A stretch of DNA of 64,000 bases from a virus. The stretch spans positions 32,748 to 96,747 of the IMG/VR virus record IMGVR_UViG_3300024346_000022; one strand, written 5' to 3'. The notes beneath the pieces were generated by a model. The model saw only the letters and a program-made list of their open reading frames with translations, did not search any database and had not been told where the DNA came from. This document shows, in pieces, positions 31,660 through 33,671 of the stretch; position 1 is the stretch's first letter, and each line of letters opens with the position of its first letter. The position numbers and the translations under genes are program-made.

Positions 31660-33671
31660 TCAACCTATCGGCGGTGCCGTCAAAGCCACTTGTGTGGTTT
31701 CTGCTGCCGCCAAATCTAAAGGAAAGTTCGCTTATCCCATAAGTTTACCATTCTTATGGAGCAGACTATATCATCAACCTATTTTATTAGGTTGTCGGAC
31801 GCTAATGGTGTATTACATAGGGCGCTCCCTAAACCACCTAGTCGTTGAACCTTCCTCAAAAGTTCGTTTGAGGCTTGGCTGCTGATTGCCCTTATATTTT
31901 GGAGGGGTTCCAGCAATTCATCCGATTTACATCTATCAATTACTTGATAGAGCCACCACTTTCTAATGGGCGTTACGTTCATGCCGTTTTTGTTATCGTA
32001 AGAACTCTTTATTTCTTACTTCTTACTGTCGCCAGTAAGACCAGACTATCTCTTCATCCGTTCTGGATGCTGGGCATTCGTGGGTAGATTATTGTTGGAA
32101 CTCACTACCTAGTCGTTAGACCTGCCGAAGAACCTATGTACTCTTCGGATTGGTACGGGATTGTCTACTTGAGAGTTTCCCCGTTTAACCCAGTTTCGTC
32201 AAGAAACATTCCTGTTTCAGGGTGACTACATTTCAGAAATCACTTCCATACCAAGTCCAGCACGATTTAAAATGTCCGCCCAAGTAGGAATTACTCGGTT
32301 TTGACTATCAACGATGGACTGGTTAAAATTAAATCCGTTCAGGTTGAATGCCATAGTGCTAACACCAAGGGCAGTAAACCAAATACCAACTACTGGCCAA
32401 GCGGCAAGGAAGAAGTGAAGTGAACGAGAATTGTTGAACGAAGCATATTGGAAAATAAGTCGTCCGAAGTAACCGTGAGCCAATTGTCCAAAAGTTTCCT
32501 TAAGGGTTGGACTATATCTTCACCTATTAAAGGTGCTGGGCGCTCTTGCCTGTTATTAAGGGAACTGTATCCCTCAGGTAGTCTCTGAACCTTTCCTAGA
32601 TGTATCTAGGACTTGGATGCTGATTGCCGTATCCATAAAGGACTTAGGTTTCCAGCAGTTCACCCAGTTTAACGTGACCCGCTCTGTCAAGCCACGATGT
32701 TGTATGTCTCTTCTTCTTGTCCGAACTTGTAACCATAATTCTGCGATTCAGTTTCAGTGGTTTCACGAACCAGTGAAGAGGTTACGAGGGAACCCCTATT
32801 GTACCTTATTTTCATAAGGAGTGGACTATATCATCAACCTATTTGTATTAGGTTGTCGGGCACTTAAACCTGTTATTAAGGGGACTAAACCCCTCAGGTA
32901 GTCTCTGAACCTTTCTCAGATGTATCTGAGACTTGGATGCTGATTGCCGTATCCATAAAGGACTTAGGGTTCCAGCAGTTCACCCGATTTTCACTTGCTG
33001 ATTACTCAACAAGGGCACAGTTCCCTATGCATTGCGGAGAAAAGACTTCCTCCAAAAACACCAGCAACTCCAAGCATATGGAAGGGGTGCATCAGGATGT
33101 TATGTTCTGCCTGGAATACAAGCATATAGTTAAAAGTACCAGAGATGCCGAGTGGCATAGCGTCAGAGAAAGAACCTTGACCGAAAGGATACACAAGGAA
33201 TACAGCAGATGCAGCAGCAACAGGTGCAGAGTAAGCAACCATAATCCAAGGACGCATACCTAAACGATAGGAGAGTTCCCATTCACGACCCATGTAGCAG
33301 TAGATGCCGATGAGGAAGTGAAATACAACAAGTTGAAATGGACCTCCATTATACAACCATTCATCAAGACTCGCTGCTTCCCAGATAGGATAGAAGTGAA
33401 GTCCGATAGCATTAGAAGAAGGAACAACGGCACCAGAGATGATGTTGTTTCCGTACATAAGAGAACCTGCTACTGGTTCCCGAATGCCGTCAATGTCCAC
33501 TGGGGGAGCACCGACAAATGCAATAATAAAGCAAGTAGTCGCAGCGAGCAACGTTGGAATCATAAGAACACCGAACCAACCAACGTATAGTCGGTTGTTC
33601 GTAGAAGTAACCCAGGAACAGAAATCGTTCCAAAGATTAGTATTAGAGCGTATAGCAATTGTAGCAGTCAT
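31660..33671 (-). CDS. psbA: Photosystem II D1 protein, five exons: 33027-33671, 32690-32794, 32239-32480, 31966-31984, 31660-31728 (359 aa spliced)
   Basis: Joined exons total 1080 nt and give an intact D1: ...SAMH|GSLVTSS...YNIVA|AHGYFGR...GMEVM|HERNAH|NFPLDLA... Confidence 0.95.
31729..31965 (-). mobile_element. Group I intron 4 of psbA (237 nt, after His337)
   Basis: P1 CCAU/GUGG, P10 GAAAGU/ACUUUC, terminal G; core ACGACUA...AUAUAGUCU. Confidence 0.9.
31985..32238 (-). mobile_element. Group I intron 3 of psbA (254 nt, inside the Met331 codon)
   Basis: P1 GUGAU/GUCAC, terminal G; core ACGACUA...AGAUAGUCU. Confidence 0.88.
32481..32689 (-). mobile_element. Group I intron 2 of psbA (209 nt, after Ala250)
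   Basis: P1 CGUGGCU/GGUCACG, P10 GAGC/GCUC, terminal G; core AGAGACUA...AGAUAUAGUCC. Confidence 0.9.
32795..33026 (-). mobile_element. Group I intron 1 of psbA (232 nt, after His215)
   Basis: 5' exon ends in U, intron ends in G; P1 GCAU/GUGC; P10 AGGGAAC pairs with exon 2 GUUCCCU; core AGAGACUA...AUAUAGUCC. Confidence 0.9.

Follow-up and report, generated by a model that had tools for sequence, protein, structure and literature searches.

Four small group I introns and a 19-nucleotide exon in the psbA gene of an uncultured cyanophage

Introduction

A group I intron within psbA of the Synechococcus phages S-PM2 and S-RSM88 was reportedly described by Millard in 2004 and by Zeng in 2009. Here we analyze a viral psbA gene that is split by four group I introns, each lacking an endonuclease open reading frame (ORF), and that contains an exon of only 19 nucleotides (nt). 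The gene lies on a 64,000-nt stretch of DNA, hereafter the window (positions 32,748 to 96,747 of the IMG/VR record IMGVR_UViG_3300024346_000022). The source contig is 96.7 kb long, has an estimated completeness of 43% and also carries tail-fibre, baseplate and ribonucleotide reductase genes. Our analysis points to a working cyanophage psbA that small, mobile group I introns without ORFs have probably invaded on four separate occasions.

In the literature searched, cyanophage psbA has a single intron, as in S-PM2 and S-RSM88 (PMC5931967; PMC6083498), in agreement with the preliminary description of the window, which had given single introns as the known state in cyanophages. The S-PM2 intron and the free-standing endonuclease F-CphI constitute a case of 'collaborative homing' (PMC6083498). 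Both S-PM2 and the window have a small ORF-less psbA intron, the S-PM2 core being 79% identical to that of window intron 1 over ~170 nt, and in both psbA is followed directly by the gene of a free-standing homing endonuclease. They differ in that the single intron of S-PM2 follows Arg334, at site 1002 (a position worked out from its sequence record; sites are numbered throughout by the nucleotide of the coding sequence immediately before the intron), whereas the window introns occupy sites 645, 750, 992 and 1011, with none at 1002. Moreover, F-CphI is Endo VII-like, whereas the neighbour of psbA in the window is a NUMOD3, GIY-YIG-like protein of another family.

Among isolates, the freshwater Synechococcus phage S-SRM01 (NC_070963) has the psbA closest to that of the window. 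It shares with the window the same PhotoRC-II leader, a very similar terminator hairpin and a site-750 intron with 98% identity to window intron 2, but the 11-kb stretch beside the window psbA shows almost no DNA similarity to it. The S-SRM01 psbA (locus L001, 3029-5437) holds three introns, at sites 276 (with an HNH ORF), 750 and 1002; the sequence record annotates two partial D1 coding sequences and no third or fourth exon, and the paper on this phage discusses one psbA intron (PMC8557907). An 'endonuclease VII' gene after the S-SRM01 psbA resembles the arrangement of F-CphI in S-PM2.

Genes with several group I introns are known from other phages. The published maximum that we found for a phage gene is three, in orf142 of Staphylococcus phage Twort, which has an internal exon of 23 nt (PMC10136302), and in some genes of the Bastillevirinae, in which polymerase and terminase genes hold several group I introns (PMC11878797). 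These resemble the window psbA in being protein-coding phage genes in which several group I introns leave very short exons between them. They differ in having, as published, no more than three introns and a short exon that is often skipped, whereas the window psbA has four introns, with its 19-nt exon flanked by unrelated introns with distinct guides. We found no publication on a multi-intron phage psbA in the literature searched.

Dense, small group I introns, some with HNH, LAGLIDADG or GIY-YIG ORFs, are also found in green-algal chloroplast psbA, with four in Chlamydomonas reinhardtii and ten in Oedogonium cardiacum, the latter at sites 179, 276, 384, 408, 525, 548, 570, 645, 754 and 898 (PMC2442088). 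By the published numbering, and thus by site number rather than by sequence, window intron 1 at site 645 corresponds to Oc.psbA.8 (PMC2442088). The Oedogonium gene differs in belonging to an organelle genome, and window sites 750, 992 and 1011 are not in its list.

Results and discussion

The window psbA lies on the minus strand, from 33671 to 31660, and consists of five exons split by four ORF-less introns (Table 1). Joining the exons on the reverse complement gives a coding sequence of 1080 nt and an intact 359-residue D1 in standard residue numbering, as had been proposed from the letters of the sequence; the coordinates, intron lengths and junctions given at that time were reproduced exactly on recomputation. 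Given the protein, each junction is unique, in that no nearby shift preserves the reading frame, the U at the exon end and the G at the intron end. The spliced D1 keeps the cofactor ligands at their standard positions (His215, His332, Glu333, His337, Asp342 and Ala344) and is 94% identical to the protein of S-SRM01 and 90% identical to that of S-PM2. The ratio of nonsynonymous to synonymous substitution rates (dN/dS) is 0.065 against S-SRM01 and 0.049 against S-PM2, indicating strong purifying selection. Translation running into each of the introns meets a stop after 0-6 codons, so that the unspliced RNA could not make D1. The frame is kept clean across four interruptions, which implies that these are removed from the RNA, and self-splicing of the four introns is what we infer from this intact, selected frame.

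The introns are inserted after His215, between Ala250 and Ala251, within the codon of Met331 beside His332, and after His337. The preliminary description was thus right in placing insertion points next to His215, His332 and His337, whereas intron 2 lies at Ala250/Ala251 and not, as it had stated, at Ala251/His252. Homing elements typically insert into the most conserved and functionally critical codons.

It could be argued that the locus is a decaying pseudogene or an assembly chimera whose introns do not splice, the contig being a metagenomic assembly of 43% estimated completeness. However, such a reading is extremely improbable in view of a frame that becomes perfect once exactly four segments are removed, with dN/dS of ~0.05-0.065, of near-identical introns at the same sites in independent contigs and one isolate, and of the presence of a promoter-like site, a PhotoRC-II leader and a terminator around the gene.

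All four introns exceed the 50-bit cut-off of the Rfam group I intron model RF00028 and match the model in its entirety (positions 1-253), in line with the initial assignment to ORF-less group I introns. No endonuclease ORF was found inside them; the ORFs that overlap them are of 30-70 amino acids and mostly enter the exons, and none of these was searched against a family library. The guide pairings were determined with a script that finds the guide G opposite the last U of the exon and then extends the paired regions P1 and P10. In four of four introns, the U at the end of the 5' exon stands opposite a guide G and the intron ends in G, with a P1 of 6-9 base pairs (bp) and a P10 of 4-8 bp, so that the U-G wobble, P10 pairing and terminal G described earlier are all found in each of them. 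Over 48 psbA introns, P1 and P10 together averaged 10.1 bp with the intron's own flanks versus 1.9 bp with the flanks of other sites, and the four window introns reached 9-12 bp with their own flanks and at most 8 bp with flanks elsewhere. Cognate pairing is thus far above non-cognate pairing, and the pairings are therefore specific rather than due to chance.

Table 1. Features of the psbA locus in the window, with the guide pairings of the four introns (a slash marks the end of the exon)
Feature	Position	Strand	Details
psbA exon 1	33027..33671	-	codons 1-215; last codon CAT, His215
Intron 1, group I, ORF-less, site 645	32795..33026	-	232 nt; RF00028 83.7 bits; P1 GCAU/AG with CUGUGC; P10 GGUUCCCU with AGGGAACU, 8 bp
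psbA exon 2	32690..32794	-	codons 216-250
Intron 2, group I, ORF-less, site 750	32481..32689	-	209 nt; RF00028 89.1 bits; P1 CGUGGCU/UG with CGGGUCACG, 9 bp; P10 GCUC with GAGC, 4 bp
psbA exon 3	32239..32480	-	codons 251-330 and AT of Met331
Intron 3, group I, ORF-less, site 992	31985..32238	-	254 nt; RF00028 55.7 bits; separate lineage; P1 GUGAU/U with AGUCAC; P10 GCAU with AUGU, 4 bp
psbA exon 4, micro-exon	31966..31984	-	19 nt; G of Met331 to His337
Intron 4, group I, ORF-less, site 1011	31729..31965	-	237 nt; RF00028 93.9 bits; P1 CCAU/UA with UGGUGG; P10 ACUUUC with GAAAGU, 6 bp
psbA exon 5	31660..31728	-	codons 338-359 and TGA stop
Candidate sigma-70-like promoter upstream of psbA	33836..33864	-	TTGACA, 17-nt spacer, TATGAT; 11/12; consensus match only
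PhotoRC-II RNA motif, psbA leader	33711..33800	-	Rfam RF01717, 44 bits vs cut-off 39
Intrinsic terminator-like hairpin after psbA	31607..31634	-	stem of 10 bp, loop of 4 nt, T tail
Free-standing homing endonuclease gene, 236 amino acids	30794..31504	-	~155 nt downstream of psbA; probable GIY-YIG type

Each of the four introns has a close relative at its own site in another genome. Introns 1 and 4 are both 96% identical to introns at sites 645 and 1011, respectively, of one survey locus (L075), intron 3 is 98% identical to the site-992 intron of another (L152), and the counterpart of intron 2 is that of S-SRM01 noted above. L152 has intron 3 and is uninterrupted at the position of intron 4, L075 has intron 4 without intron 3, and the sets of introns differ between genomes. 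As each window intron occurs singly at its own site elsewhere, we conclude that they were acquired independently, and the window introns are optional elements that assort independently of one another, which is the hallmark of mobile introns. Intron 1 also occurs at site 645 of a further locus, L178, with a 225-amino-acid HNH ORF inserted in it. Long introns at other sites encode HNH, LAGLIDADG-like and GIY-YIG-like proteins and a fourth protein type, giving about four groups; apart from HNH, these were assigned solely on motifs and on BLAST of the proteins against one another. The initial suggestion of repeated attack by several endonucleases is therefore supported both by same-site introns that occur singly elsewhere and by these ORF groups in relatives.

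The same comparisons bear on whether the multi-intron layout has instead been selected as a regulator, with light- or redox-gated splicing and four introns making for a steeper switch. In S-PM2, high light raises the amount of spliced relative to unspliced psbA RNA (PMC5931967), the splicing of Chlamydomonas psbA introns is stimulated by light (cited in PMC5931967), and the stops after each 5' splice site would keep unspliced window RNA from making D1. Yet intron number and position are freely variable between close relatives, which have none to at least four in differing sets, a pattern to be expected from optional selfish elements rather than from a conserved regulator; nor does the sequence indicate a sensor. 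We thus regard selection for regulated splicing as improbable.

To place the window psbA among other viral genes, we surveyed IMG/VR with two scans for patterns of the intron core, followed by tblastn, an intron hidden Markov model and refinement of the junctions. The survey is a sample without frequencies, and the core patterns also matched introns in unrelated phage genes. It retrieved at least 24 intron-bearing psbA loci that use at least 17 insertion sites, those among the matches listed being 179, 230, 276, 317, 408, 548, 556, 570, 645, 750, 890, 989, 992, 1002, 1008, 1011 and 1021. An exon-end T and an intron-end G were found at all 17 surveyed sites. Six of the Oedogonium sites (179, 276, 408, 548, 570 and 645) equal surveyed phage sites, in numbering only.

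Among the matches listed, intron number peaked at four for complete genes, and two truncated genes held four or more. The complete psbA of L075 has four, at sites 230, 570, 645 and 1011, and the truncated gene of L178 at least four, at 179 (partial), 548, 645 and 1008. In L163 (IMGVR_UViG_3300007216_000561), where the contig ends at codon 122 of psbA, there are four introns at 556, 989, 1008 and 1021; the last three of these (oriented positions 1500-2280) fall within 33 coding nt and leave micro-exons of 19 and 13 nt, a layout that is more extreme than that of the window psbA. The expectation that four introns in one gene are unusual therefore holds against the literature but not against public viral contigs, in which genes with three to at least four introns recur. 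Four introns and a 19-nt exon exceed the published cases yet are not unique, and the window psbA is a well-formed case of a recurring, little-described pattern and not a new kind of element. It extends the known intron system of cyanophage psbA by a larger number of introns, new insertion sites and another partner endonuclease; sites 750, 992 and 1011 were not found reported for phages in the literature searched.

With an intron-less D1 as the query, only 1 of 80 related loci had a match to the intron model, and that outside psbA, in a search that kept only contiguous, intron-less genes and so provides no denominator for intron-bearing ones. A tblastn search with D1 against isolate phages gave only single-piece genes among the matches listed. 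When the core pattern was sought in prokaryote genomes, psbA was present at none of 120 loci, and there was no sign of introns in host psbA in this sample.

The micro-exon between introns 3 and 4 had been predicted to serve as the P10 partner of the former and the P1 partner of the latter, and by doing so perhaps to force an order of splicing. The dual role was confirmed, with nt 1-4 of exon 4 forming P10 of intron 3 and nt 16-19 forming P1 of intron 4. Two folded ribozymes only 19 nt apart may also hinder each other sterically, and short exons between group I introns are known to lead to exon skipping, as in Twort orf142 (23 nt) and the Coxiella 23S rRNA (34 nt) (PMC10136302). However, the two pairings use opposite ends of the exon without overlap, and each intron is found with the same flanks and without the other in L152 and L075, so that a forced order is not supported and a fixed sequence of splicing appears quite unlikely, more so than regulated splicing. 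Introns 3 and 4 are dissimilar, with 55% identity, and differ in their guides, and the pairings needed for skipping exon 4 amount to only 2 bp. Distinct splice-site guides were found to suppress exon skipping (PMC10136302), and with introns this unlike and skipping pairings this short we would expect exon 4 to be included rather than skipped. Hairpin-like matches over the micro-exon on the plus strand were discarded, since their G-T pairs become A-C mismatches on the RNA strand.

The introns fall into two lineages. Introns 1, 2 and 4 are related, introns 1 and 2 being 75% identical overall and 84% identical over 177 nt, whereas intron 3 is only 51-55% identical to the other three. A distant DNA search with intron 3 gave short matches of 90-95% to several hundred phage records, mostly of coliphages with some Streptococcus and Bacillus phages, and the distant matches listed covered 28-32% of it at 76-79%. 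The core of intron 3 is probably a member of a widespread lineage of phage introns, distinct from the one to which the other three belong.

Similar cores occur at different sites. Over 182 nt, window intron 1 (site 645) and the intron at site 548 of L178 are 94.5% identical, yet the pair differs completely in its first ~35 nt, which comprise P1, the guide and P2, and in its terminal ~25 nt. Cores are also common to further pairs of sites, namely 408 and 890 (91%) and 750 and 1002 (88%), again with different ends, and within L178 the cores of the introns at 548 and 645 are 97% alike. Near-constant cores with site-specific ends mean that one core has been re-aimed at new sites or that cores have been homogenised between introns.

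The gene directly downstream of psbA encodes a homing endonuclease, probably of GIY-YIG type. Its 236-residue product has five Pfam NUMOD3 matches (E 2e-25), matches the PHROG homing endonuclease families 314 and 655 and gives weak GIY-YIG matches. Homologues follow psbA directly in L024, L050 and L163, and others occur close by in L123 and S-SRM01. L024 has two tandem homologues, at 3237-3611 and 3967-4422, directly downstream of its intron-bearing psbA. Close to this end of the gene, six of the surveyed insertion sites (989, 992, 1002, 1008, 1011 and 1021) crowd into 33 coding nt that cover residues 329-341.

This crowding in the region of the Mn ligands raises the question of whether introns 3 and 4 are kept mainly as immunity, interrupting the recognition sequence of free-standing endonucleases adjacent to psbA. 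The endonuclease would then cut the intron-less psbA of competitors and drag the intron along, and the crowded sites would be the trace of an arms race. The site-1002 intron of S-PM2 does block cleavage by F-CphI (PMC6083498), S-SRM01 combines an 'endonuclease VII' gene right after psbA with an intron at site 1002, and all of the loci with a homologue of the window endonuclease directly downstream have an intron in this region (L024 at 1002, L050 at 1011, and L163 at 989, 1008 and 1021). On the other hand, the GIY-YIG-like enzyme may have a target unrelated to these introns, and the co-occurrence concerns a handful of loci that were chosen for having introns, without an intron-less control set. 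Introns 1 and 2, which lie 260-370 coding nt upstream of the cluster and further in DNA, would also be left unexplained. We therefore consider immunity a possible but tentative explanation of introns 3 and 4, and one that we are more inclined to doubt than to accept.

Colonisation of a working psbA by mobile introns, the reading that we prefer, would proceed as follows. A pool of introns would circulate among uncultured T4-like cyanophages. Each intron would find its own splice sites by means of a short internal guide, forming P1 with a U.G pair and then P10, and two transesterifications, ending at the terminal G, would excise it and restore the mRNA for the 359-residue D1. Spread between co-infecting phages would rely on endonuclease-triggered recombination (homing), the endonuclease being encoded within the intron in some relatives or perhaps supplied in trans by a gene such as the ORF downstream of psbA. 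A shared core would reach a new site by gaining different guide-bearing ends, and the 19-nt exon would be the remainder between two independent insertions, with each of its ends serving one intron.

Several points weigh against this scheme. Intron 3 barely clears the Rfam cut-off (55.7 vs 50 bits), and the splicing of all four introns is itself deduced from the intact and selected frame. The cleavage site of the free-standing endonuclease may have nothing to do with these introns. New sites could have been reached by reverse splicing, by an exchange of intron ends through recombination or by gene conversion between cores, and gene conversion within one gene could mimic recent transposition, as for the introns at 548 and 645 in L178, whose cores are 97% alike. 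A broader version of the scheme, which combines a re-aimable ribozyme family with an arms-race footprint in the six 3' sites and an intron pool shared with green-algal chloroplast psbA, is in our judgement rather unlikely to hold as a whole, and somewhat less likely than immunity for introns 3 and 4.

Some further elements of this phage were noted. A fifth group I intron lies outside the window, at contig positions 14341-14535 (L006 ~1480-1720, minus strand); it scores 53 bits and is intergenic, its flanks look like two halves of a tRNA gene, and a T-arm-like GGTTCGAGGCC stands just after it. Within the window, a tRNA-model match of 53 bits on the minus strand (58110-58228) spans 119 nt, with ~48 nt inserted in the anticodon loop, and was not called by ARAGORN; it adjoins normal tRNA-Lys, tRNA-Thr and tRNA-Gly genes and may represent a tRNA that carries an intron or is disrupted. 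A 113-amino-acid ORF on the plus strand (34582-34923), ~0.9 kb upstream of psbA, has a staphylococcal-nuclease-like domain (Pfam SNase, E 2e-12).

The pattern found here has consequences for the way in which viral psbA is recorded, as multi-intron genes end up wrongly annotated as fragments, S-SRM01 being an example, and surveys that use psbA as a marker miss or truncate them. With an unrelated ribozyme on either side, the 19-nt exon offers a clean natural test of exon inclusion versus skipping, and the shared cores with site-specific ends form a natural series for how group I introns gain new targets. In these phages, psbA emerges as a sink for introns, on a par with the psbA of chloroplasts or the cox1 of fungi.

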